A DNA stretch of 64,000 nucleotides from a virus, in the IMG/VR virus record IMGVR_UViG_3300030382_001297, positions 1 to 64,000 of that record. The stretch is one strand, 5' to 3'. The stretch's first letter is position 1. Each line of letters starts with the position of its first letter. The notes under the pieces are model-generated. The model had not been told where the DNA came from, searched no databases, and worked only from the letters and a program-made list of their open reading frames with translations. Of this stretch, positions 18,626-49,464 are shown piece by piece. The position numbers were made by a program, and so were the translations under genes.

Positions 18626-20491
18626 TTAAATCTCACATTTGTCGCCCATACAAGCATACTCAGCTTTTCCTTGAGTATTGTCATTCATTTCGTATTTCGA
18701 CAACTGTCTATAATCTATTCGGGGTAGCTTCTTTATAAGCCTTTCGTAGGTTCTATGGTCGATTTCCTCATAAGGGGCCAATTTATAATGTCCTCCATCG
18801 TAAGGTAGGAAGGAAACTCCGTTAATGATATCCCAGTTTTGATATACCCAATTACCTACTTCAAACCATTCATCATCTCTGACGTATACAGTCATACTAG
18901 CATTATGTTCACACCAGTTATGTTGTAAGTTTTTATAATGTTTTAATTGGTCTAACGCAGTTACATCCTTTCGAGTTATACAATTTTCAGGAGATTTAAC
19001 AGGAAATTCTAATACCCAAGTAGAAACATTCCTTTTAGTCTGTCCATTTTCAGGATTACATTTTATCCCTGAGTCCTTCATTAATTTAAATAAGGGGTCT
19101 CTGTCTGCAATTCTATAGCGTCGGATGTAGTAATCTGACCAACGTGGATGTACTCCACTAGAAGAATCTACTAATTGTGAAACTGTGCCTGAAGGCTTGA
19201 CACAAGTAGTGGCAGATGGCATCTTTGTACCGAGGATACTCGAAGCTTTGCGAGAAATGCGTAAAACGCGGCTTTTAAGGGCCTTTAAAGCCTCCGAAGT
19301 CATCAAGGTGGGGTTATCCATCTGTCCGGTCAAACTAACGCCTAGAAGCGCTTCTATGTCACAATTCTTTTTCCAGCCTTCTCTAAGGTATGGAAAGTAG
19401 GTAAATGAGCTCTGTATAACACCGAGCCATGTAGCAGTCTCTACCTTATCTAAAAGGGTATCTAAATTATCCTCTGCTCTAACAACCACTTCGCTTAGGT
19501 TACAGAACTCCATATCTCTAAGCATTATCTCACCACAAGGGTTAGTACCCTGTATTAATGGAGCATATCTGCGTGATGGAGCTTTGCTCTGTGCAGCTTG
19601 GAGATTAAATATACCTCTCTCTCCTGTGCCTGATAGAGCTAATTCTGCCCATTCTTTTAGAAATTGTCCTGCTGAGGGCTTTTCTCTATATATAGCGCTA
19701 TTGTTTGCCATAGCACGTTTAATAGGGAAAGGCCACTCTTTTGCATGACGCATGTCTTCATCATCAAGGCCACTCAAAGAGATTTGTGAGCTGCGTCTAA
19801 CTCCACCCACTACCACGATTTCAGCAATTTGATTACAAATATCATGAGCTTCCAACGTTGTGAGCTTTCGACCTTGGGCATTATGCATGGTTTCACGAAT
19901 GAAATCATGTAACTTAATAAGAGGAGCTGGACCTGAGGCACGACCTCCCATAGTGCGTAAGCGAGCTCCCTCTGGTCTAATTTGAGAATAATCAAAATGT
20001 ATGTTTTGACCATCATATAAATTTTGCATGAGCATCTTCACAGAGTCTGACCATCCAGCTTTGGAATCAAAGATAGGGATTTTGTCTAACGCTCTCCCCG
20101 ATTTAATTTCCGGAATATCCGGAAGTTTATCCACTTCTTCCTTCTCTACTGAAAAACCAAAGCCAGTCCCACACATTAGGATGTAAAGACACTCGGCAAA
20201 AGCTTCAACACAATTTATTTTAGTAAAGGAGCAGTTATAAATGCATGTGTTATCAAACTTAGCAGCTGGTCCTGCTGCCCATAAAAATCTCATTGACGGC
20301 ATTACGCCGAATTCTTTCATGTACTTTCTAATTTTATTAACCGTTTTCTCAGGTATCTCTGGCCTCTCTGAATAGATGAAATCTAAAAATCTCTCTATGG
20401 TTTCGGGCCACTCTTCTCTTCTTTTATCCTCATCAATCCAACGAGAATATGTTCTCTTATATATAAATTCTGCTACTTCGTTTTTAAACAT
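18626..20491 (-). CDS. nrdJ: Class II (adenosylcobalamin-dependent) ribonucleotide reductase
   Basis: RTYSR, PSMRFLW, TNPCGEI, FCNLSEV, TTCVKPSGTVSQL and a C-terminal CxxxxC pair; no beta subunit present. Confidence 0.92.
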   Translation of the reverse strand: MFKNEVAEFIYKRTYSRWIDEDKRREEWPETIERFLDFIYSERPEIPEKTVNKIRKYMKEFGVMPSMRFLWAAGPAAKFDNTCIYNCSFTKINCVEAFAECLYILMCGTGFGFSVEKEEVDKLPDIPEIKSGRALDKIPIFDSKAGWSDSVKMLMQNLYDGQNIHFDYSQIRPEGARLRTMGGRASGPAPLIKLHDFIRETMHNAQGRKLTTLEAHDICNQIAEIVVVGGVRRSSQISLSGLDDEDMRHAKEWPFPIKRAMANNSAIYREKPSAGQFLKEWAELALSGTGERGIFNLQAAQSKAPSRRYAPLIQGTNPCGEIMLRDMEFCNLSEVVVRAEDNLDTLLDKVETATWLGVIQSSFTYFPYLREGWKKNCDIEALLGVSLTGQMDNPTLMTSEALKALKSRVLRISRKASSILGTKMPSATTCVKPSGTVSQLVDSSSGVHPRWSDYYIRRYRIADRDPLFKLMKDSGIKCNPENGQTKRNVSTWVLEFPVKSPENCITRKDVTALDQLKHYKNLQHNWCEHNASMTVYVRDDEWFEVGNWVYQNWDIINGVSFLPYDGGHYKLAPYEEIDHRTYERLIKKLPRIDYRQLSKYEMNDNTQGKAEYACMGDKCEI

Positions 20492-38508: not shown

Positions 38509-40653
38509 TCATACTTTTATAACCCTCCTGATTATCTTTGATACTGCTGGCGCAAGGTTATCTATATTACTAACCATTATATGGTTGTTAAACATCTTTT
38601 GTTGTGCATACTTATCTGCTCCGCTTATTCCTACTTGAATAATTGACCATCCTTTACCTTCTAAATGATTTACTACCTTTCGCACGTGACTCATACCATC
38701 ATAACCACCATATCCAGACGCAGCCGGCTGACCGTCGGAGTATATAATCATAAGCTTGTTAGACATAGGCTGTGAAGATTCTTTACTAACTCTTTCAGCC
38801 GCCGCCCATATAGCCATACCATCTCTATTTTCATATCGAGCTATCATAGCTCCCATAGCCATAGGTCTATCTTTCATATTCGGCCCCCAATATTCAGTCA
38901 TATTGGTCGAACCACAATCTGTATGCCATCCAGCTTCACCATCAGCAGTATGACCAAATACCCATAAGTCTAATTTGGGATTATCCTGTAAAGCTTCTTT
39001 CGTAGCGATAGCTGACTGTCGAGCCATCTCCATCTTCCACGAACCCATACTACCTGATTCATCTACCAATATACAAATGTCTAATGGTTTATCATCTTCA
39101 ATTATATCATTCTTAAACAAATCCTTACGACCTAATGGTATTCTGTGAAGCATACGCTTATCTATCTTACCACGCTTCTGATTACGGATAGTATGTTTTT
39201 GTGTATTACCATATAAATCTATCTTACGCTTGAGTGAATTACTTATCTTCTTCATATTTTTAGATTCTGCCTTATATTTAACTCTTTGACCTTCAGTAGG
39301 TCGAGCTTTACGCCAAGTGATTTTCTTTTGGTTCTTGTATATAAGACCAACCTCAGTCATCTCAGTTTCCATATAGTCACTATCTTCAAGTTCTTCTATC
39401 TCTTTTGATATTTCATCGGCTAATGCACTACTCTTAGCATCTAACGTATAGTCTACTGCTTCTTCAAGTTCCCTCATCCCATCTGAGTCTTTCATTAGCT
39501 TACGAACATCAGACATACGACTTCTTTTACGTTCTATGTCTTTCTTAATTGAATCCTTTATGGATTCCCACTGTTCATCAGTTAATAAATCACCATCAGT
39601 CATAGACTTTTTGAGTTTGTCCATCTCTTTCTCGATATCTTTCTTCATATCCTCGCCGGAGCCTTTATCTTTAACCATCTTTTCGGCTACTGCTTTAAGA
39701 TAATGGAATAGTGCTTCTATACATTCAAAGGTATTTTCTCTACTATCCAATCCATTCTTTAACGCACGTGCAAAAAATCTTATATGCTTTCCGTGACGCT
39801 TTCTGCGAGTGTCGCCCATATGTTCCGGCCATCTAATGAAAGCTAATAGAGTATTCAGTATATCCATAAATGGATTATCTTCTATCATTTCTAATTTAGT
39901 TTCCATCTTCTCCTTGAAAAAGTGTTTCTTAACTTCAGAAATATATGTCACAAACCCAGCGTTATCTTTAGCTAACTGCTTTTCTATGTATTCATCTTCT
40001 ACTGAATTAGCGATAGTATGTAGTAATGTTCCTTCATATGTATCTTTTACTAATTCTGTTGCTTTCCTCTTTTCCCATCTATATAATGGTTTACTATGAA
40101 TGAGGTGTAACTTTTCGTGTATAGCTAATCCTGCTGTTATATCTAAATTGTCATCACTCTTCTTTAGTAGAGACCCATCTATGCGTATGAGTCCTCTTTC
40201 TAAATCAGAATAGTTCTGACCTTCATAATTGTAATCTAACTTATGCGATACTGTTGGGTCTACAACTTTACATAGAGAATCTAAATGTCTCTTATGTTTC
40301 AGTAATCTGGTCGCATCATCTTTATCAGCGTGGGAACTACCCCAACTACCCCACATACTTGACGTAGAGCCTGTGGATTGTCCTTGCCACCAGCCACCAC
40401 CACCCCAAGTATAGGAACTACTACGGTTCCACATATCTCCGGTGGAAGATATAACGGGTGAATCTTTTATCGCAACTTTTGCTGTTGAAGCAGTAGTGAA
40501 TCTATCATCATAATCTAATGGAGTTTCACATATAGGACATTTATCCTCATGCGTAGCTTCTATCCATTTACTACAATCATAGCAGTAATCATCATCTGAT
40601 ACGCCTGTCCACTTATCTATATCGGTGTGGTGTGGTTCGTGTTTAATAACCAT
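38509..40653 (-). CDS. VWA-domain protein (CobT/NorD-like) with HEXXH zincin-like region
   Basis: MIDAS ILVDESGSM, IYSDGQP, GKIDKRML; AIHEKLH...NSVEDEYIE; N-terminal Cys pairs. Confidence 0.82.
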   Translation of the reverse strand: MVIKHEPHHTDIDKWTGVSDDDYCYDCSKWIEATHEDKCPICETPLDYDDRFTTASTAKVAIKDSPVISSTGDMWNRSSSYTWGGGGWWQGQSTGSTSSMWGSWGSSHADKDDATRLLKHKRHLDSLCKVVDPTVSHKLDYNYEGQNYSDLERGLIRIDGSLLKKSDDNLDITAGLAIHEKLHLIHSKPLYRWEKRKATELVKDTYEGTLLHTIANSVEDEYIEKQLAKDNAGFVTYISEVKKHFFKEKMETKLEMIEDNPFMDILNTLLAFIRWPEHMGDTRRKRHGKHIRFFARALKNGLDSRENTFECIEALFHYLKAVAEKMVKDKGSGEDMKKDIEKEMDKLKKSMTDGDLLTDEQWESIKDSIKKDIERKRSRMSDVRKLMKDSDGMRELEEAVDYTLDAKSSALADEISKEIEELEDSDYMETEMTEVGLIYKNQKKITWRKARPTEGQRVKYKAESKNMKKISNSLKRKIDLYGNTQKHTIRNQKRGKIDKRMLHRIPLGRKDLFKNDIIEDDKPLDICILVDESGSMGSWKMEMARQSAIATKEALQDNPKLDLWVFGHTADGEAGWHTDCGSTNMTEYWGPNMKDRPMAMGAMIARYENRDGMAIWAAAERVSKESSQPMSNKLMIIYSDGQPAASGYGGYDGMSHVRKVVNHLEGKGWSIIQVGISGADKYAQQKMFNNHIMVSNIDNLAPAVSKIIRRVIKV

Positions 40654-41012
40654 TTTTCTATATCCTCTTCCGGTTGCATAGCTTCTGCTATCATCTTATA
40701 TTCAAAACATTTTAAGGTTCGTTTAGCTGACCCTACTGCACATTTATATACAAATCTATCATCGTCAGTAATCATACCTTCTATCATAGCATATGCATCT
40801 TGTATGTCTATCGTTTGTGGTAGGTTAGTCTCTAACATATTATCATTCTTAAGTCTACGACTATATCCTCCAACGTGCCTACCTGTGATTTCACCCTGTG
40901 GGTATGCTATCTTCAGGGCTTTGGCTACCATTGCTGGCTTCATTCCATGCTCTAATAAAATTTTTGCTGGAGTATGCCAATACATATGTTTCTTACTTCT
41001 TACTTTTGCCAT
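40617..41012 (-). CDS. Hypothetical protein (possible HTH)
   Basis: Lies between the AAA and VWA genes; LLEHGMKPAMVAKAL. Confidence 0.5.
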   Translation of the reverse strand: MAKVRSKKHMYWHTPAKILLEHGMKPAMVAKALKIAYPQGEITGRHVGGYSRRLKNDNMLETNLPQTIDIQDAYAMIEGMITDDDRFVYKCAVGSAKRTLKCFEYKMIAEAMQPEEDIEKWLLNTNHTTPI

Positions 41013-41014
41013 AC

Positions 41015-42319
41015 TTAATCACCCATTGATTGTATTGCTTGAATAACTTTAACTCTATCAGTGTCGTCACCAGCAGTTATAGGATAGAATGGTAAGCAAG
41101 TATGCTTAAGTGCATCAAGCAAAGTCATACCATCTACTACTAATTCACCTACTGACAAACACATACGAGTAGAAACAGCTACGTTTAACTCTTCTGCTTT
41201 ATATAAATCTCTAATCTTCTTAGCAAATTCAGTTATACGCCTTGCGTCATCATCTTCGAGATGTGGAACACGATTCTGTAATAGTTCCTGTTCTTTATTC
41301 TGTGGTAGGTAATCTAATTCGTATATACCTCCAGTGAATCTATCCTTCCAAGCTCTATCTAAGTCGTTGGCCGCCCCAAGATATTCTCTACCTATGTTAG
41401 CAGTAGCGAAGAAGAATACGTTAGTATCTAACTTAACTATGTCTGCGTCATCACTTTCGTCTAACGCTAAGTATCTTTGACCATCTAACACAGGCATAAG
41501 TATATTACCTAAGTCGCCTGTCCTATCTCTTGTCACTTCGTCAAGCATAATGAATGCTCCACTGTTATCTTCTAAGGCTGATACGAAACGAGATGGCTTA
41601 AACCACGTTCCATCCTCTTGATTATACTTTGTGTCTCCTAATAGCTTTGCCGCCGGATTCATAGTATCCCCAAAATTGAACTGATGGAATGGTTTGTTAG
41701 TTATCTCTGCCAATATCTTACCTAAAGATGACTTACCGCAACCGGATGGCCCTGTCACAAGTATATACTTATTCCTAAAGATGTTGCGTAGCATAGTATA
41801 AAATGTCATACTATCTGCGAACTTAAACTCTTCAGGTATAGCTACGCTTGACTTAAGCTTTCCTATCACACTGTCATCAATAACAGGTATAATAGGTTCT
41901 TCTTTTATTGCTTCAGCCATAAAATCATCTACGGCTGTCTCCCTATCATCTCGCATAGCGTCACCGCTTTCTATATCCTCATCCAATACTGAATGGTCTG
42001 GACTATCTCCTATATCTTCTATCGGAGTCTCATGCCCTATGGCATCTTCTGCTGGCTCGGATGACTCAGGATATCCTCCTACGTCATCTCTATATGTCTC
42101 TTCTGACTTCATTTTTTTTACCTCTTTATGTATATCTTCGAGTTCTACCTCTAATCTTGATATCATTTTGTTGTATTCTTCGAGAGCTTCGTGGTCTATC
42201 ACAGGCTCTCCCATAACTTTATCTTTGCATTCATTCATGAAACGTAGCTTATCTTCTACTTTTACTTGCTTAGTTGTTAGTTCACCTAATTTAGCGAACT
42301 TCTCACTTCTACTACTCAT
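41015..42319 (-). CDS. MoxR/CbbQ/CobS-family AAA+ ATPase
   Basis: GPSGCGKS, IMLDEVTR, FFATAN, DLDRAWKDRF, VSTRMC. Confidence 0.88.
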   Translation of the reverse strand: MSSRSEKFAKLGELTTKQVKVEDKLRFMNECKDKVMGEPVIDHEALEEYNKMISRLEVELEDIHKEVKKMKSEETYRDDVGGYPESSEPAEDAIGHETPIEDIGDSPDHSVLDEDIESGDAMRDDRETAVDDFMAEAIKEEPIIPVIDDSVIGKLKSSVAIPEEFKFADSMTFYTMLRNIFRNKYILVTGPSGCGKSSLGKILAEITNKPFHQFNFGDTMNPAAKLLGDTKYNQEDGTWFKPSRFVSALEDNSGAFIMLDEVTRDRTGDLGNILMPVLDGQRYLALDESDDADIVKLDTNVFFFATANIGREYLGAANDLDRAWKDRFTGGIYELDYLPQNKEQELLQNRVPHLEDDDARRITEFAKKIRDLYKAEELNVAVSTRMCLSVGELVVDGMTLLDALKHTCLPFYPITAGDDTDRVKVIQAIQSMGD

Positions 42320-42429: not shown

Positions 42430-42963
42430 TCATTCTCTATCCTCCGGCTCACACCATTCCCATCCGAGTGCTTCGTATATCCCTGTCTCAGTTGGTCCTG
42501 CTATCTTTTCGCCTTCTTTATTATATAATCCGTATTGATTTAGTTTATATCCCATTCTTTTAACAAGATATCTCTTACGGATGTTATATCTTTGAGGTCC
42601 AGTCGTATACATCATTGCTGTCCCCCAGCTATCGTGTTCTGTGAAGAATATATTATATAACATTCCTTCACTATCTTTAAATATAATTCTCTTTGAACCT
42701 GCACTAAGGATGTCATATCTGTCATCACCTGTTGTAGCAAGATAGTCAAAGACTTTCTTCCATCCGTTGGTGGTTAGTATATCTATATCTCCTATCATCT
42801 CTTCACACCTACGCATCGAACCTGTTATCATTGTTCCTTGATGTTCATCTCCTATATCGCATATTCTATGCCACATCAGGTTAGCTTTATCATAGGCTTC
42901 TGCGTATCTTATCTTTTCTCCGCTACTCATACATCTCCTCCGCTTTCTTAATCTCAGCTTCAT
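42430..42963 (-). CDS. polX: Minimal family X DNA polymerase (palm and thumb only; probable start 42929)
   Basis: TGSMRR...GDIDIL, YTTGPQRYN...GYKLNQYGLY, ETGIYEALG..WCEPEDRE. Confidence 0.85.
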   Translation of the reverse strand: MKLRLRKRRRCMSSGEKIRYAEAYDKANLMWHRICDIGDEHQGTMITGSMRRCEEMIGDIDILTTNGWKKVFDYLATTGDDRYDILSAGSKRIIFKDSEGMLYNIFFTEHDSWGTAMMYTTGPQRYNIRKRYLVKRMGYKLNQYGLYNKEGEKIAGPTETGIYEALGWEWCEPEDRE

Positions 42964-45643: not shown

Positions 45644-46189
45644 TGTTTGACCTCTAATATACCAAGGGTTAGGTCCTATTTAAGCTTTTGCACATGTCTA
45701 AAATTAGGGAGCCCTAAACTGTAAGGCTCCACATTAAAATTAAGAAGCTCCCAAACTTTTCAAATGGGAAACAAGAGGGATTTAACATTCCCCTGTTTCC
45801 TCATCGAAGACACCACAACAAAGGCAAGTGTATTTATCTCCACTACATTTAAGATTGTGGTCTTCTATCTTTTTGCGTTCTATCTCAAACTCTACGTTTT
45901 CGTCGTATAGGTCGTCTACATTAGGCATTGTTCACTCTCCAATATAAATTGTTGTGCGTTGTCTATCACTGAATGATATTCTGAAAGGTTTTCATCTCCA
46001 ACCTCTACCAATACCTGACGGATAGAGTCAAGACCGTAAATGATTTCGTCCTGTCTCATTTTGATTCACCTAATATCTGTTCTACTATATCGTGCCACAA
46101 GTCAAGCATTTGGTCTGTGGTAAACGGCTTATCATTATAATAATGATTTTTTAAAACTTTCATTTCGTCTGCTGTTAATATTATTTCAC

Positions 46190-46441
46190 TCATTCTAAAC
46201 CTCTTATTTGTTCGTCTTCTTTAAAGATTGCGTCTAATTCCTGAATCCTTGCGTAGACTTCTTTTTTCCATCTTACTAAATCCTGACCTTTTAGCTTGTC
46301 ACCTCTTAAGGTGTATTCGTCAGCCCAAAAGCTAACCATTCCTCTTACAGTTCCAAGAATCCAAGATTCAATAGAATATTGTTCTTTGCTTAAAGCGTCG
46401 GCTTCCCTTGCTCTTTTTAAATTTCTTCTTATCGTTTCCAT
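46190..46441 (-). CDS. Hypothetical protein
   Basis: GGAG RBS; 83 aa. Confidence 0.55.
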   Translation of the reverse strand: METIRRNLKRAREADALSKEQYSIESWILGTVRGMVSFWADEYTLRGDKLKGQDLVRWKKEVYARIQELDAIFKEDEQIRGLE

Positions 46442-46443
46442 TT

Positions 46444-46626
46444 TTAGTATTCTCCATTATCTTCCCAATCGTAATTTAACTCGAATTTTTCATTCTGTCC
46501 ACAGGTGCAATTATCGTAAATCCAATCGCAACCGTCTGCGTGTTGGTTTTCTTCGTGCGTTGCTCCGCTGTTTTCGTATTGAAAGGCCATTTCATCTGTT
46601 AGATTTTGTAATAAGGTTTTTCTCAT
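46444..46626 (-). CDS. Acidic Cys/His microprotein
   Basis: AGAGGT RBS; HADGCDWIYDNCTC. Confidence 0.55.
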   Translation of the reverse strand: MRKTLLQNLTDEMAFQYENSGATHEENQHADGCDWIYDNCTCGQNEKFELNYDWEDNGEY

Positions 46627-46794
46627 TTTGCGACCTCTTTATCAAGTCCCAACTTTTGGGCCTCTATTGCCTCGTAAATTTCGAGGGTGTGACTCATCGG
46701 TAATTTAAACCGACGGCTGGCTTTCCTGAAACGGAATTCGTTTCTTAAAATGTTTTCTTTGAAGCTCATTTTTTCTCTCTAATTCTACTCTAAC

Positions 46795-46880
46795 GAGAGA
46801 GTATTTAAGGGTTTGGGTCATTTTAGTATATAAGTATCGAGGGGGTATATATAGTCCGTTTTAGGTTCCGCTCGCACTTT
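46795..46880 (-). promoter_or_regulatory. Triple-TATA promoter cassette, copy A
   Basis: On +: GTATTTAA 46801, GTATATAA 46826, TATATAGT 46848, CCGCT 46868. Confidence 0.72.
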
Positions 46881-47149
46881 TTCGCGCATGTCCTTAAAAG
46901 GAATATACAATCTCACAGTCAAAACAAAACTGTGCGTCTGGTAGTTTTGTAAATGGGTTATCCTTTTGGTAACCGTCTACTAATTCTCTTTTACATTCTT
47001 GGCAATTCTTATATCGTCCGTGTTTCATATTTTACCTTATATTACCTATAACGAGGGAGGTTATAAAGGTTTGCACATGTCCAAAGTTTTTAATACCGCT
47101 GGCCTAAGAGCGCCACATTAATGACTGAGCTTAGGCCTTGAGTATAAGG

Positions 47150-47225
47150 TTTAGGGGTGTAGGTCGTGAGAACCCACTCGCACTAACCACGGGATTACAA
47201 CCGCGTGCCTCCGGAAGGCCTATAA
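47150..47225 (-). ncRNA. Degenerate tRNA-like element
   Basis: Anticodon-like hairpin CACG(C)GG-TTGTAAT-CCCGTG and T-arm-like GTGGG-TTCTCACGA-CCTAC; no canonical D-arm. Confidence 0.3.
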
Positions 47226-47365
47226 ATTTTGTGCTTCGCCATTCTTGTCAAGCGCCCCTATTTTTATACTGGGGTATTAATCCAGTCTTAAAACAAATAT
47301 CAGAACGACAACGCTAAAGTATACGTCTTAGCGTCTGTGAACTTCCTACTCATTAATAAGTATAA

Positions 47366-47525
47366 GGTGTGAGGGAGGATTCAAGGTTAACCTCCAAAGA
47401 CTACCGGCCCAAATACCTAAGTATTGTCCGCACTTACCACTCACCACCCTCTCACGCATTTGCGCATTGAGGCAGGTTTGTGTGCCTTACCCCCTTTGGG
47501 AAGGGGTTATTCAGCCACTCACGAT
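47366..47525 (-). ncRNA. manA-motif-like structured RNA with a tRNA-like 3' end
   Basis: 5' UGGCUGAAUAACCCCUUCCCAAAGGGGGUAAGGCACAC resembles, from memory, the manA RNA motif of marine phages; 3' GGAGG-UU...GAAU-CCUCC-CUCACACC. Confidence 0.5.
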
Positions 47526-47626
47526 AACGGGATATCTCCCATTAATATAAGGTGTTGGGTCGGGATTCGGCCCCTGAAACCCAACACGGGATATTGTATT
47601 TTTAATTACAGTTTAATTCTGTTTGC

Positions 47627-47710
47627 TTACTTTGACCATCGGCTTGACTTTGTCGAAGTTGGAATACGTCCAATCTTAAGCCAAAGCTTCTGAATTCGTG
47701 TTAGTTTCAT
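47627..47710 (-). CDS. 27-aa basic peptide heading the ncRNA transcription unit
   Basis: AGAGGTAAA RBS downstream of promoter B; MKLTRIQKLWLKIGRIPTSTKSSRWSK. Confidence 0.45.
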   Translation of the reverse strand: MKLTRIQKLWLKIGRIPTSTKSSRWSK

Positions 47711-47739
47711 TGTTCTTTTACCTCTAACTTACTTGTAGC

Positions 47740-47825
47740 GAGAGAGTATTTAAAGCTTTGCCTCAAAATAGTATATAAGACACGAGGAGACTTATATAGT
47801 GCGTTTTGGGTTCCGCTCACTGTTT
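47740..47825 (-). promoter_or_regulatory. Triple-TATA promoter cassette, copy B
   Basis: Elements at 47746, 47771, 47793 and 47813. Confidence 0.72.
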
Positions 47826-48173
47826 TTGAAAAAATTTGGACATGTCGATTTTAAAAATTAAATATAAAATCTTTGGCGTCCCAGCTTTCTGGTGCCTCTT
47901 GGTCTGATAGACCAATGGCATCCGCTACCTGTTGCTCTCTAATTGGACAGTTACCAAAATAAACCTCCATCGCTAAGGATAGGATGAAATCAGTCCAATT
48001 TAAATTATTGTGGTTGCTCATTCTTTACCTCGTATTATACTAAACAGTTCTGCTAATACGTCGTCGTAATATTCCACATCGTTAGGACTGCGGACGTTCC
48101 ACGTATTAAGTTTACTAATATCGTATCTTAAGGAGTCTATCGCTACCAATAGCTCTGTTGTAGTGAAAGCCAT

Positions 48174-48446
48174 TTAAGCACCTCTCTTATAAATTTCTTT
48201 GTTAGGATAGGCCACGAATCTGGCCCCTACGCTATTAATAACGTCCCAAACTTCAGCGTCGTTAAGACTACCGTGTTTAGTTCCAAAAGAGTGGAGATTA
48301 ACCCAGCCTATTGTGTGGCAATAGGTAGAGTTTGGCCCCTCCATTCGGGAACCCATTAGTTCCACCCAAAAATTGTGGATACTCATCAATCGACCATCCC
48401 AGTCGACGAAGCCAGTTTTATTTGTTGTATAAGTTGTTTTATTCAT
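48174..48446 (-). CDS. Hypothetical protein
   Basis: AGAGGTAAAA RBS downstream of promoter C. Confidence 0.65.
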   Translation of the reverse strand: MNKTTYTTNKTGFVDWDGRLMSIHNFWVELMGSRMEGPNSTYCHTIGWVNLHSFGTKHGSLNDAEVWDVINSVGARFVAYPNKEIYKRGA

Positions 48447-48472
48447 TCTTTTACCTCTATTATTACTGTAGC

Positions 48473-48558
48473 GAGAGAGTATTTAAGGGTTTGGGTCATT
48501 TTAGTATATAAGGCACGAGGGAGTATATATAGTGCGATATACGTCCCGCTAACGTTTT
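48473..48558 (-). promoter_or_regulatory. Triple-TATA promoter cassette, copy C
   Basis: Elements at 48479, 48504, 48526 and 48546. Confidence 0.72.
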
Positions 48559-48577
48559 TTTAAAAATTTGCATGTCT

Positions 48578-48948
48578 GGGTATACCCCCCCTACCCCATG
48601 GGGGTATCTCTTCTAGAGAGGATAGCTATATATAGTGGGTATATAAGGGTGGGGGGTCATTTATATATAGGGGGTATATAAGACAAGTGCCACCCCCCCA
48701 TGCATGTGTTGACATGTACATGATTAGACATGTCCCGGTTTTGGGATTGGCTGATGATTAACATTATAATATTAAATAGAAAGTCTACTTAGTATTACCA
48801 TTACTTCTGTTAAATATTTTTGGTATTCGTCCATTACTTAGTGTCACCCCTTAGTTGTTTTTTTGATTTTTTTATTTGTTTATCGAGCATCTTTTCCAAT
48901 TTTTCTAAAATTTCCATTGGGTCTGCGGTGGGGTATACCCCCCCTACC
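48578..48948. repeat. 18-bp direct repeat GGGTATACCCCCCCTACC flanking G/C tracts and a CATG cluster
   Basis: Identical copies at 48578-48595 and 48931-48948; five CATG within 48699-48732. Confidence 0.7.
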
Positions 48949-48965
48949 TCTATTAAACGCATTGA

Positions 48966-49103
48966 TTACCTCTTATTCCAAGTGGAGTATCGGGTAGGTG
49001 TGTCCCTACGGCTGGTCTGCTTCCAGATTTGGGTTGCCACGATGCGAGCTATAAGGGCCCTGTTGTGGTTATCTACTTGCTGTTGTGTTGGTGTAGTTGT
49101 CAT
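48966..49103 (-). CDS. 45-aa microprotein (true start inside track ORF 48966..49307)
   Basis: AGAGGTAAAA RBS before MTTTPTQQQ; promoter D upstream. Confidence 0.55.
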   Translation of the reverse strand: MTTTPTQQQVDNHNRALIARIVATQIWKQTSRRDTPTRYSTWNKR

Positions 49104-49130
49104 TTCTTTTACCTCTATATTACTTATAGC

Positions 49131-49216
49131 AACCAAGTATATAAGGCTATCGCTGGTTTTAGTATATAAGGAAGGAGGAAGTATATATAGTGCAATATAG
49201 CGTCCGCTCACTATTT
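49131..49216 (-). promoter_or_regulatory. Triple-TATA promoter cassette, copy D
   Basis: Elements at 49137, 49162, 49184 and 49204. Confidence 0.7.
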
Positions 49217-49464
49217 TTATTATATTTTTATCTTGCTGCGCGGATGGCCCCCGGTCTAAAAAATCGCATGCCCACCTGTGCTTAACGTCGTGTAGGGGTA
49301 CAAACAAATCGTCTGAATTTTGAAAGTAGTAGTTCTACATAGTAAGAGCTATATAGATATATTATATAGAGTAAGCATTTCAGGACAGGCATTAGTGTCT
49401 ATATGTCATGTTAACAGAAAGTTTTATATACTAATGTGGTCTTAGTAGTTTCAGTGAAAAAATT

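Follow-up and report, generated by a model that had tools for sequence, protein, structure and literature searches.

A minus-strand cluster of conserved noncoding RNA modules, including a distant manA RNA and a cloverleaf RNA of a new family, in a marine virus with archaeal-type promoters

What occupies some 500 gene-free bases in the genome of a marine tailed virus? The genome, IMG/VR virus record IMGVR_UViG_3300030382_001297, is 72.5 kb long and rated complete by CheckV; the window analyzed here is its first 64 kb (64,000 nucleotides), and the bases in question lie at 47587 to 47101 on the minus strand. An initial annotation had read them as an array of structured small RNAs (a hairpin, a manA-like RNA, a tRNA-like element, and a second hairpin) punctuated by a repeated junction motif, and had proposed a polycistronic precursor processed at a common signal, possibly giving tRNA mimics or decoys against anticodon nucleases. 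The region is a same-strand cluster of independently folding, conserved noncoding RNA modules, and that one of them is a distant manA RNA and another the member of a new family is well supported. How the modules are transcribed and released we infer from their surroundings in relatives and from RNA-library contigs.

RESULTS

Conserved modules fold on one strand

Along the minus strand, the cluster runs through a hairpin (H1), the manA RNA, a second hairpin (H3), a cloverleaf-shaped RNA (U2), and a third hairpin (H2) (Table 1). As the initial annotation had it, the region contains no credible open reading frame (ORF): no plus-strand frame is kept in relatives, both being broken by indels (in relatives L002 and L003, 1 nt is inserted behind 47157 and 2 nt in the center of manA). 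G-U pairs are frequent in every module and, because they would be C-A on the plus strand, the minus strand is the RNA strand.

A search with the neighboring 354-residue protein led to nine viral loci. L002 and L003 carry the array at 95% identity, with compensatory changes relative to the window in the H1 stem (U-A to C-G), the U2 closing helix (A-U to G-C), and a U2 hairpin (C-G to U-A), and relatives whose neighboring protein is ≤69% identical have no manA (whole records of L007 and L009, only a 15-kb locus of L010). All four modules first described (H1, manA, U2, and H2) recur and covary in viral and metagenome contigs.

The two hairpins named at the outset, H1 and H2, are real. H1 has a 9-bp outer stem and a conserved inner part (UUCAGGGG-CCGAAU-CCCGA, with the 7-nt loop GCCGAAU); compensatory double changes affect 8 of its 12 predicted pairs (15 distinct sequences), and its inner 3-bp stem covaries among GGG/CCC, GGA/UCC, and GGU/ACC. 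H2, whose inner stem is GUCAU-UAAU-GUGGC, belongs to a nearly invariant family in which 3 of 13 pairs are compensatory (8 distinct sequences) and the U-G pairs fit the minus strand only. H3 presents a conserved loop (ACGUAUAC) between conserved flanks (AGGAAGUUCA and GUCGUUCUGA), and its stem differs yet stays paired in L166, L196, and L206 (6-sequence alignment). It occupies the place that most relatives give to a further module, U3, which the window lacks. In U3, a covarying closing stem of 7 to 9 bp encloses the conserved loop AAGAUGAAAAUAGCAAAAUAGUAUUGCA, and some copies have an additional hairpin (27 to 28 distinct sequences). The module is carried by L135, L148, L149, L151 to L159, and many metagenome loci, usually between manA and U2 or before tRNA-Glu; in the loci searched, it has no Rfam match.

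The junction motif recurs where the initial annotation placed it: TATAAGGT on the plus strand, read as ACCUUAUA on the minus strand, starts at 47143, 47361, and 47546, and the window holds 13 copies against 4.1 expected, a number reached by none of 100 shuffles. The motif is TATA-like on the plus strand, and its copies might be promoters of that strand beside which the structures are incidental. This reading is almost certainly wrong. A scan for sigma-70-type promoters over 46700 to 47950 returned 1 site, with 2.5 expected, and none at the junction motifs; the plus-strand ORFs are interrupted by the indels of relatives; covariation and G-U pairs agree, without exception, with the minus strand; and the genes around the array, from 18 to 49 kb, lie on the minus strand as well.

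A distant manA RNA

The RNA first described as manA-like matches Rfam family manA (RF01745) in a covariance-model search, over model positions 1 to 192 (E = 2e-11), with 55.4 bits against a gathering score of 55.2, a margin of 0.2 bits; copies in relatives score 49.6 to 58.2 bits. The window copy contains the core strings CUGAAUAA, GGUAAGG, and AAUCC and has the architecture of a P1 hairpin, a closing helix (GUGAG/CUCAC) around four inner branches, and an ACCUU tail. RNAalifold, applied independently of the Rfam model to an alignment of 16 distinct sequences from the lineage, recovered P1, the closing helix, and the branches, with compensatory double changes in 19 of 42 pairs; the closing helix itself appears as GUGAG/CUCAC, GCGAG/CUCGC, and GGGUA/UACCC. 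Directly after this helix, 11 of the 16 sequences read ACC, 3 read ACACC or AAACC, and 2 read ACUUAA. The Rfam consensus likewise terminates in aCcuu, and among 120 loci found with a general manA pattern, the 38 with a parsable 3′ end finish in ...CCUCCCUC(C)UU, mostly followed by a U run.

A pattern for the manA core retrieved 49 viral records, 35 of which have one above-cutoff copy each, of cyanophage type, scoring 89 to 197 bits. Because the window copy reaches only 55 bits, we regard it as a distant variant. A variant-specific pattern found 17 loci, which comprise the window's own lineage, loci with a near-identical manA in other flanks (L135 and L142), and others; L137, L146, and L147 were rejected as coding sequence without a manA match. 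A separate group of 10 loci on other viral contigs (L131 to L134, L138 to L141, L144, and L145; 60 to 68 bits) has manA directly before the Shine-Dalgarno sequence and ATG of a conserved small gene, the classic arrangement in a 5′ untranslated region (UTR). The window manA is not in the 5′ UTR of a protein gene: H3 and U2 follow it, and the next ORF is 336 nt away behind a promoter-like element of its own.

U2, a cloverleaf RNA of a new family

A 20-nt degenerate string from U2 matched 16 viral and 58 metagenome loci. Counting the window, the set holds 73 loci, of which 64 contain a second motif of the family and yield 42 distinct sequences; the 9 left out are partly cut by contig ends and partly false. 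The alignment comprises 41 distinct sequences, L205 being omitted for its truncated center, and compensatory double changes occur in 21 of the 35 pairs that RNAalifold predicts from it.

The family begins with a short hairpin, P0 (double changes in 4 of 5 pairs; family loop (U)UAAUAC), followed by UAAAA and then by a four-way junction. Its closing helix P1 reads AGGGG/CCCCU in the window and GGGGG/CCCCC, UGUCG/CGACA, GAGGGA/UCCCUC, or UGUCUG/CAGACA elsewhere. The first arm is a 4-bp hairpin whose loop is UGACAAGAAU in the window and conforms to an invariant family loop, GACAA(C)GAAU. Next comes P3, a 4-bp stem bearing a variable domain and an invariant hairpin, CGCGG-UUGNAANC-CCGUG. The last arm, a 5-bp hairpin (GUGGG-UUCUCACGA-CCUAC) with a loop starting UUC, is separated by one base from the 3′ strand of P1. 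The window has the short form of U2, in which the variable domain is reduced to a single hairpin.

An nhmmer profile of U2 finds one copy in the window (47284 to 47144; E = 4e-34) and matches L135, L136, L142, and L143 within the 17-locus manA-variant set. It finds nothing in the 10 Shine-Dalgarno-linked manA loci or the other nonlineage loci of that set, in 120 cyanophage-type manA loci (866 kb), or in 120 archaeal tRNA-Glu loci (870 kb). Across 185,579 species genomes, the sole match to the U2 pattern was a chance hit in coding sequence of a Chitinophagaceae metagenome-assembled genome (MAG). No Rfam family matches U2 even at E ≤ 10, either in 46000 to 48600 of the window or in four relatives' loci. 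U2 is thus a conserved RNA of cloverleaf topology, of a family that no Rfam model covers, and not a tRNA.

The designation as a tRNA-like element holds for the shape, a four-way junction ending in helix, A, and CC, but not for the identity. ARAGORN calls no tRNA in the window, the Rfam tRNA model (RF00005) has no match at E ≤ 10 in 46000 to 48600, and in four relatives' loci the same model recognizes the true tRNA-Glu genes and passes over U2. An anticodon stem-loop (5 bp with a 7-nt loop) is absent; the arm in the anticodon position is a 4-bp stem with two or three hairpins of variable size. These features also bear on the proposal that the modules mimic tRNAs, as decoys or substitutes, in the face of host anticodon nucleases or other defenses directed at tRNA. 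The topology of U2 would suit that role, as would the 5-bp hairpin with a UUC-starting loop next to the closing helix, the A-CC tail, and the direct neighborhood of U2 and tRNA-Glu(UUC) in relatives, and the H1 loop GCCGAAU resembles a T loop. The branched domain of variable size where an anticodon arm should be, the silence of tRNA models and of ARAGORN, and the want of any tRNA to protect in this genome make such mimicry highly improbable.

Module order in relatives

We mapped the modules in 66 loci, from which duplicates were not removed and which include a few false U2 hits. The order H1, manA, (U3), U2, H2 is seen in 8 of the 66 loci, 6 of them (the window included) without U3 and 2 with it; some of the other mapped loci have no leading H1, and U2 may be followed by tRNA-Glu, U3, or H1. 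H2 stands 74 to 76 nt past the U2 anchor in most loci (110 nt in one), the site at which some relatives have tRNA-Glu. A tRNA-Glu(UUC) gene is found 66 to 70 nt after the U2 anchor in 8 loci and after U3 in 3 more (11 of 66). It is of the Marine Group II archaeal type, with CCA encoded, and its mature 5′ end lies 9 to 12 nt past the closing helix of U2 or U3, so that the sequence after the helix serves as the tRNA leader in these relatives. The array of this genome adjoins no tRNA gene, there being none in all 72.5 kb.

This exchange of neighbors tells against another explanation, that the array is a cis-acting UTR, either the 3′ UTR of a 27-codon gene upstream or a leader controlling a 44-codon gene downstream, with the ACCUUAUA copies pairing with UAUAAGGU. 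In its favor, UAUAAGGU lies at 47041 to 47034 (minus strand), 6 nt before the ATG at 47028; small ORFs end 5 to 100 nt before manA in many relatives; one group of manA variants directly precedes a Shine-Dalgarno sequence and ATG; and manA was first proposed as a 5′-UTR riboswitch candidate (PMC2864571). What follows U2 varies, however, among tRNA-Glu, U3, H1, and H2, with no constant downstream gene; the 44-codon gene is separated from H2 by a promoter-like element; an RNA-library contig, described below, spans U2 alone; and a July 2026 preprint describes free-standing manA RNAs in closed assemblies of 8, 10, and 60 subunits (10.64898/2026.07.01.735769). We consider a cis-acting UTR very unlikely.

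A tail shared by several modules

The initial annotation held that each structured unit ends in ACCUUAUA and that CATTAAT precedes each plus-strand copy. All three ACCUUAUA copies begin at or immediately behind a closing helix's 3′ strand, and related tails follow closing helices in relatives, but the exact 8-mer is limited to the window's close kin; the ACC/CCUUA part alone is widespread. We conclude that manA, U2, and relatives' U3 have a common tail after their closing helices (helix, A, CC, UUAY), of which ACCUUAUA is the form in this lineage. CATTAAT is not a signal. Two copies do stand where described, as a gapped pattern confirms, but the third overlaps the motif by one base (CATTAATATAAGGT at 47540 to 47553), and the three are unrelated things: the 5′ strand of manA P1, a variable linker, and the apical part of H2. 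One copy is lost in L002 and L003, where the linker copy reads ATAAATG.

Within 24-nt frames, CCTTAY occurs in 19 of 27 distinct U3 sequences, 14 of 43 for U2, 3 of 17 for H1, 0 of 10 for H2, and 1.7% of 20,000 random 24-nt windows, the module sequences being related, so that the events are not independent. Of the 41 distinct sequences in the U2 alignment, 17 have CCTTAT after the closing helix, and 28 have CC no more than 6 nt from it. For manA, the anchor pattern of the 24-nt count was too permissive (101 “distinct” hits), and we relied on the 16-sequence alignment described above instead. The differing context beyond the tail (tRNA, H2, U3, or promoter-like boxes) suggests that the tail is part of the module that it follows.

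Could the tails instead start the next RNA? Each module might be its own transcription unit, with the junction CCTTATA(T/C) acting as a weak archaeal TATA box. The promoters of this genome provide the comparison. A motif, AAGCTTTAWATA, occurs with ≤1 mismatch at 19 sites of the window (e.g., 3124, 33466, 35028, 44002, 44486, 47747, and 58005), where 2.0 are expected; most sites share the strand of the genes around them, and they usually lie 30 to 47 nt upstream of start codons. The form of the motif, a purine-rich element followed by TTTAWATA, agrees with the archaeal consensus of B recognition element and TATA box (BRE/TATA). Between 47100 and 47700 there is no copy, the single one nearby (47758 to 47747) standing ahead of the 27-codon ORF, and a scan for intrinsic terminators found nothing at the junction motifs. 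Transcription of single modules would agree with the presence of CTTATATAC some 25 nt upstream of the main TATA box in recurring intergenic promoter cassettes, with post-U2 tails of some relatives that read CTATATAAGC or CCCTATATAAAGG, and with L166, where manA has a canonical promoter 19 nt before P1.

The junction motif, however, lacks the AAAG(C) part of the genome-wide promoter. Archaeal transcription starts about 22 to 25 nt after the TATA box; starts at that distance would fall after manA P1, inside H3, and inside H2, although P1 and H3 covary. Furthermore, an RNA contig begins 12 nt past one such box, and the tail of relatives, 9 to 12 nt before the mature 5′ end of tRNA-Glu, is too near for a TATA box. 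Separate transcription units are therefore unlikely.

RNA-library contigs

Fourteen DNA-type runs contain the stretch almost whole, and six RNA runs contain 6 to 14% of its sampled words. Four of the RNA runs were compared, all as contigs, in which uncovered parts are not evidence. In X16, a vent metatranscriptome, a 186-nt contig of depth 18 is identical to 47164 to 47349, that is, to H3, P0, and most of U2, and no other piece of the array occurs at that identity; at least the H3-U2 unit is thus present as a discrete contig in an RNA library. X17, from rRNA-depleted seawater, has a 463-nt contig of the L002 type (96% alike, 47016 to 47448) that reaches from H2 across U2 into the 3′ half of manA and thereby bridges two junction motifs. 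In X15 and X18, the pieces either lie outside the array or represent 31 nt of an H2 look-alike.

X16 also contains a 212-nt contig (depth 33) from a relative, in which 33 nt from the 3′ end of manA (to 47368) is joined to 53 nt from its 5′ start (from 47548). The joint, located immediately behind the A next to the manA closing helix (47368), steps back by 181 nt, and 212 equals 181 + 31, the length that a cyclic path would presumably give with 31-letter assembly words. This one contig from one run fits either a circular RNA or tandem gene copies. A search of viral contigs for tandem manA (manA end, 1 to 25 nt, manA start), which would miss diverged relatives, gave one hit, a false positive in coding sequence, and the 66 mapped loci contain no tandem. 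Of the loci, L166 alone contains two short motifs taken from the contig's loose ends; manA there is single copy and has a promoter of its own, so the joint comes from a relative outside these loci.

A proposed precursor cut in its tails

We consider the best explanation overall, and a reasonably probable one, to be a module cluster that is transcribed as one RNA, cut in its tails, and active in trans. The array would be transcribed from the single canonical promoter at 47760, ahead of the 27-codon ORF; a single transcript is suggested because no promoter motif lies inside the array and one contig bridges the junctions. The precursor would then be cut in the short A/U-rich linkers after the closing helices, leaving stable free RNAs that act in trans. 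Cutting at the tails is favored over TATA function because the latter would put starts inside covarying stems and because the same tail lies only 9 to 12 nt before the tRNA-Glu of relatives. There, U2 is probably freed by the host's tRNA-end enzymes; in this genome, its release would fall to a putative nuclease. The family to which it belongs makes self-assembly of the manA module into closed RNA oligomers probable.

Several observations weigh against this explanation. The L166 locus (1250 to 1330), with the canonical promoter AAAGCTTAAATA 19 nt before manA P1 and no H1, indicates that modules can be primary transcripts. The tail is not universal, being found in 3 of 17 H1 and 0 of 10 H2 sequences, with CCTTAT missing from 24 of 41 U2 sequences, and we know of no nuclease that reads a helix-A-CC-UUAY tail. 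Contigs show neither strand, starts, nor ends. That of X16 stops 11 nt inside the predicted 5′ boundary of the U2 unit; past its 3′ side, the closing helix continues for another 11 nt, and the predicted cut between ACC and UUAUA is 16 nt away. That of X17 could stem from DNA carryover into the RNA library. When the 5′ flank of manA was cofolded with its 3′ flank, and likewise for unit 2, the flanks did not pair and formed no bulge-helix-bulge, a weak form of which a simple energy fold could miss. Finally, the window manA is barely at the Rfam cutoff, against 89 to 197 bits for cyanophage-type copies, and cage formation would be extrapolated to it from distant members.

A bolder version builds on the likeness of the ends of manA, U2, and relatives' U3 to that of a tRNA, which consists of the closing helix, a discriminator-like A, CC, and a neighboring 5-bp hairpin. 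The host tRNA-end machinery would cut after the A, manA would be ligated into a 181-nt circle, and such circles would build RNA-only cages in Marine Group II cells. We regard this scenario as decidedly unlikely.

The carrier and its probable host

The carrier is a marine tailed virus with archaeal-type promoters. Its window, with a G+C content of 38%, encodes a large terminase, a portal protein, a tape-measure protein, a family B DNA polymerase, a class II ribonucleotide reductase, and an ATP-dependent ligase, as well as a CobS-like AAA protein, a CobT-like VWA protein, a GT4 glycosyltransferase, and a PD-(D/E)XK nuclease; 40 of 47 further ORFs have no PHROG family match. The large terminase and the polymerase are only 20 to 23% identical to their best matches in cultured phages, so no host can be read from them, and a blastn search with 46800 to 47900 matched nothing in a phage collection.

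A D-arm string of the relatives' tRNA-Glu points to archaea: among the matches listed, all genome contigs, 79 of 80 titles name archaeal MAGs, the majority Marine Group II (Poseidoniales) and the remainder other archaea or unnamed Euryarchaeota. A likeness of tRNAs has been used in the same way to name hosts (PMC5434244). Magrovirus group E is described as having a CobT-VWA protein, a GT4 glycosyltransferase, and PD-(D/E)XK nucleases (PMC11706807), all of which this genome has too. Because of the archaeal-type promoter motif, the D-arm of relatives' tRNA-Glu, and the gene content shared with group E, an archaeal host is likely, probably one of Marine Group II (Poseidoniales).

The sole relative of the terminase in genome collections (64% identity) is on L161 (CAYUWB010000069.1), a 2.7-kb contig binned into a MAG of the gammaproteobacterial Ca. 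Ruthturnera; this is one hint against an archaeal host, although the binning is probably an artifact and the contig too short for naming a host.

The virus combines its CobS-like and CobT-like genes (38509 to 42319, minus strand) with a B12-dependent class II ribonucleotide reductase (18626 to 20491, minus strand), and tRNA-Glu(UUC) is the sole tRNA of its relatives. The C5 tetrapyrrole pathway starts from Glu-tRNA. A link of tRNA-Glu and the Cob genes to cobalamin supply is conceivable. Four kilobases from the RNA array, the window encodes a small nucleotidyltransferase of the Pol-beta type (177 residues; 42430 to 42963, minus strand), with a match to the thumb domain of DNA polymerase beta (E = 1e-18) and a weak one to the palm domain.

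Flanking genes and promoter-like elements

The positions of the modules, tails, and flanking features are collected in Table 1.

Table 1. Features of the RNA array and its flanks (window coordinates)
Feature	Position	Strand	Basis or remark
Canonical promoter of the unit, CAAAGCTTTAAATA (BRE/TATA-like)	47747..47760	minus	AAGCTTTAWATA copy at 47758-47747
27-codon ORF, MKLTRIQKLWLKIGRIPTSTKSSRWSK, heading the transcription unit	47627..47710	minus	Synonymous-only changes relative to L002/L003
H1 hairpin, GTGTTGGGT/ACCCAACAC	47552..47587	minus	Covarying outer stem
Tail ACCUUAUA after H1 (first two bases are the H1 stem end)	47546..47553	minus	Sequence, motif count
Divergent manA RNA	47364..47544	minus	Rfam RF01745 match
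Tail ACCUUAUA after manA closing helix	47361..47368	minus	Sequence, motif count
H3 hairpin	~47299..47349	minus	6-sequence alignment, RNA contig
P0, 5-bp hairpin, loop AUUAAUAC; first conserved element of the U2 family	47268..47286	minus	Alignment
U2 cloverleaf	47153..47259	minus	Covariation, nhmmer
Tail ACCUUAUA after U2	47143..47150	minus	Tail counts in U2 alignment
H2 hairpin, GGCCTAAG/CTTAGGCC (GGCCUAAG/CUUAGGCC)	47101..47137	minus	8-sequence alignment
Promoter-like CAAACCTTTATAAC of the 44-codon gene	47060..47073	minus	Read from sequence
44-codon ORF, CxxC...CxxC	47028-46894	minus	Next gene after the array

The 27-residue peptide noted beside the array corresponds to a conserved ORF; all 4 of its differences from L002 and L003 are synonymous, and a homologue in L199 stops 19 nt upstream of manA. 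Basic small ORFs of 22 to 34 codons end 5 to 100 nt before the array in several relatives (L199, L177, L193, L201, and L149) and fall into two recurring families, MKLTRIQK(L/I)WLKIGRIPT... and ...LLTWLVG(I/V)SYATRKL. On the other side of the array, CAAACCTTTATAAC has 2 mismatches to the genome-wide motif and is thus outside the count made with ≤1 mismatch, and UAUAAGGU, the ribosome-binding region of the 44-codon ORF, is the exact complement of the three ACCUUAUA tails.

An intergenic cassette of about 110 nt stands ahead of successive small minus-strand genes (46766 to 46882, 47702 to 47846, 48436 to 48570, and 49094 to 49218). The copies are 72 to 83% identical to one another, have three TATA-like boxes each, and end in ...CTCTCTCG; upstream of them is a palindrome of the GACATGTCC type with a T run that may be a terminator.

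DISCUSSION

The array places a distant manA in the company of a cloverleaf RNA without an Rfam family, two hairpin modules, and, in relatives, tRNA-Glu, an operon-like context whose common end motif lends itself to tests of processing. U2 in particular adds an RNA family of 41 distinct sequences with strong covariation for structural and functional work.

The modules partly resemble RNAs that reportedly lodge in or near phage tRNA gene clusters, such as the stable RNAs C and D of T4, GOLLD, and ROOL: here, too, unrelated structured RNAs stand head to tail on one strand with short linkers, next to a tRNA in relatives. This genome, however, has no tRNA, its host is probably archaeal, and its modules have a helix-A-CC-UUAY tail. 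With tRNAs and viral tRNA-like structures, U2 shares a four-way junction, a 4-bp first arm, a 5-bp last arm beside the closing helix, and an N-CC tail, but it lacks an anticodon arm, the GG of a D loop, and, in the last arm, a 7-nt T loop, and neither a covariance model nor ARAGORN matches it.

The joint between the 3′ and 5′ ends of manA in X16 recalls the circular noncoding RNAs of archaea (PMC3326292 and PMC9014305); against this likeness, it is one contig in one run, tandem DNA copies could produce it, and its flanks lack a bulge-helix-bulge. If the circular form is true, RNA cages would be linked to archaeal RNA circularization.

A catalogue of 8,495 candidate structured RNAs predicted from IMG/VR draws on the same source collection and the same kind of evidence, intergenic covariation, and the 29 to 151 bases given as its length range would exclude the long form of U2 (PMC10690425). 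The literature consulted makes no mention of manA in archaeal viruses or of the other modules, some of which may be among the candidates of that catalogue.

It is with manA itself (RF01745; Weinberg et al. 2010, PMC2864571) that the comparison is closest. The window copy has a full-length match, the 5′ hairpin, the closing helix around four branches, and the ACCUU end; relative to cyanophage-type copies, its score is lower and its center different and shorter, and unlike the classic manA, it is followed by another RNA and not by a gene. In the sources consulted, manA RNAs come from gammaproteobacteria, cyanophages, and marine metagenomes and have now been described as forming cages (PMC2864571 and 10.64898/2026.07.01.735769). 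The carrier described here has archaeal-type promoters, and with it the host range of manA is probably wider than bacteria and cyanophages.

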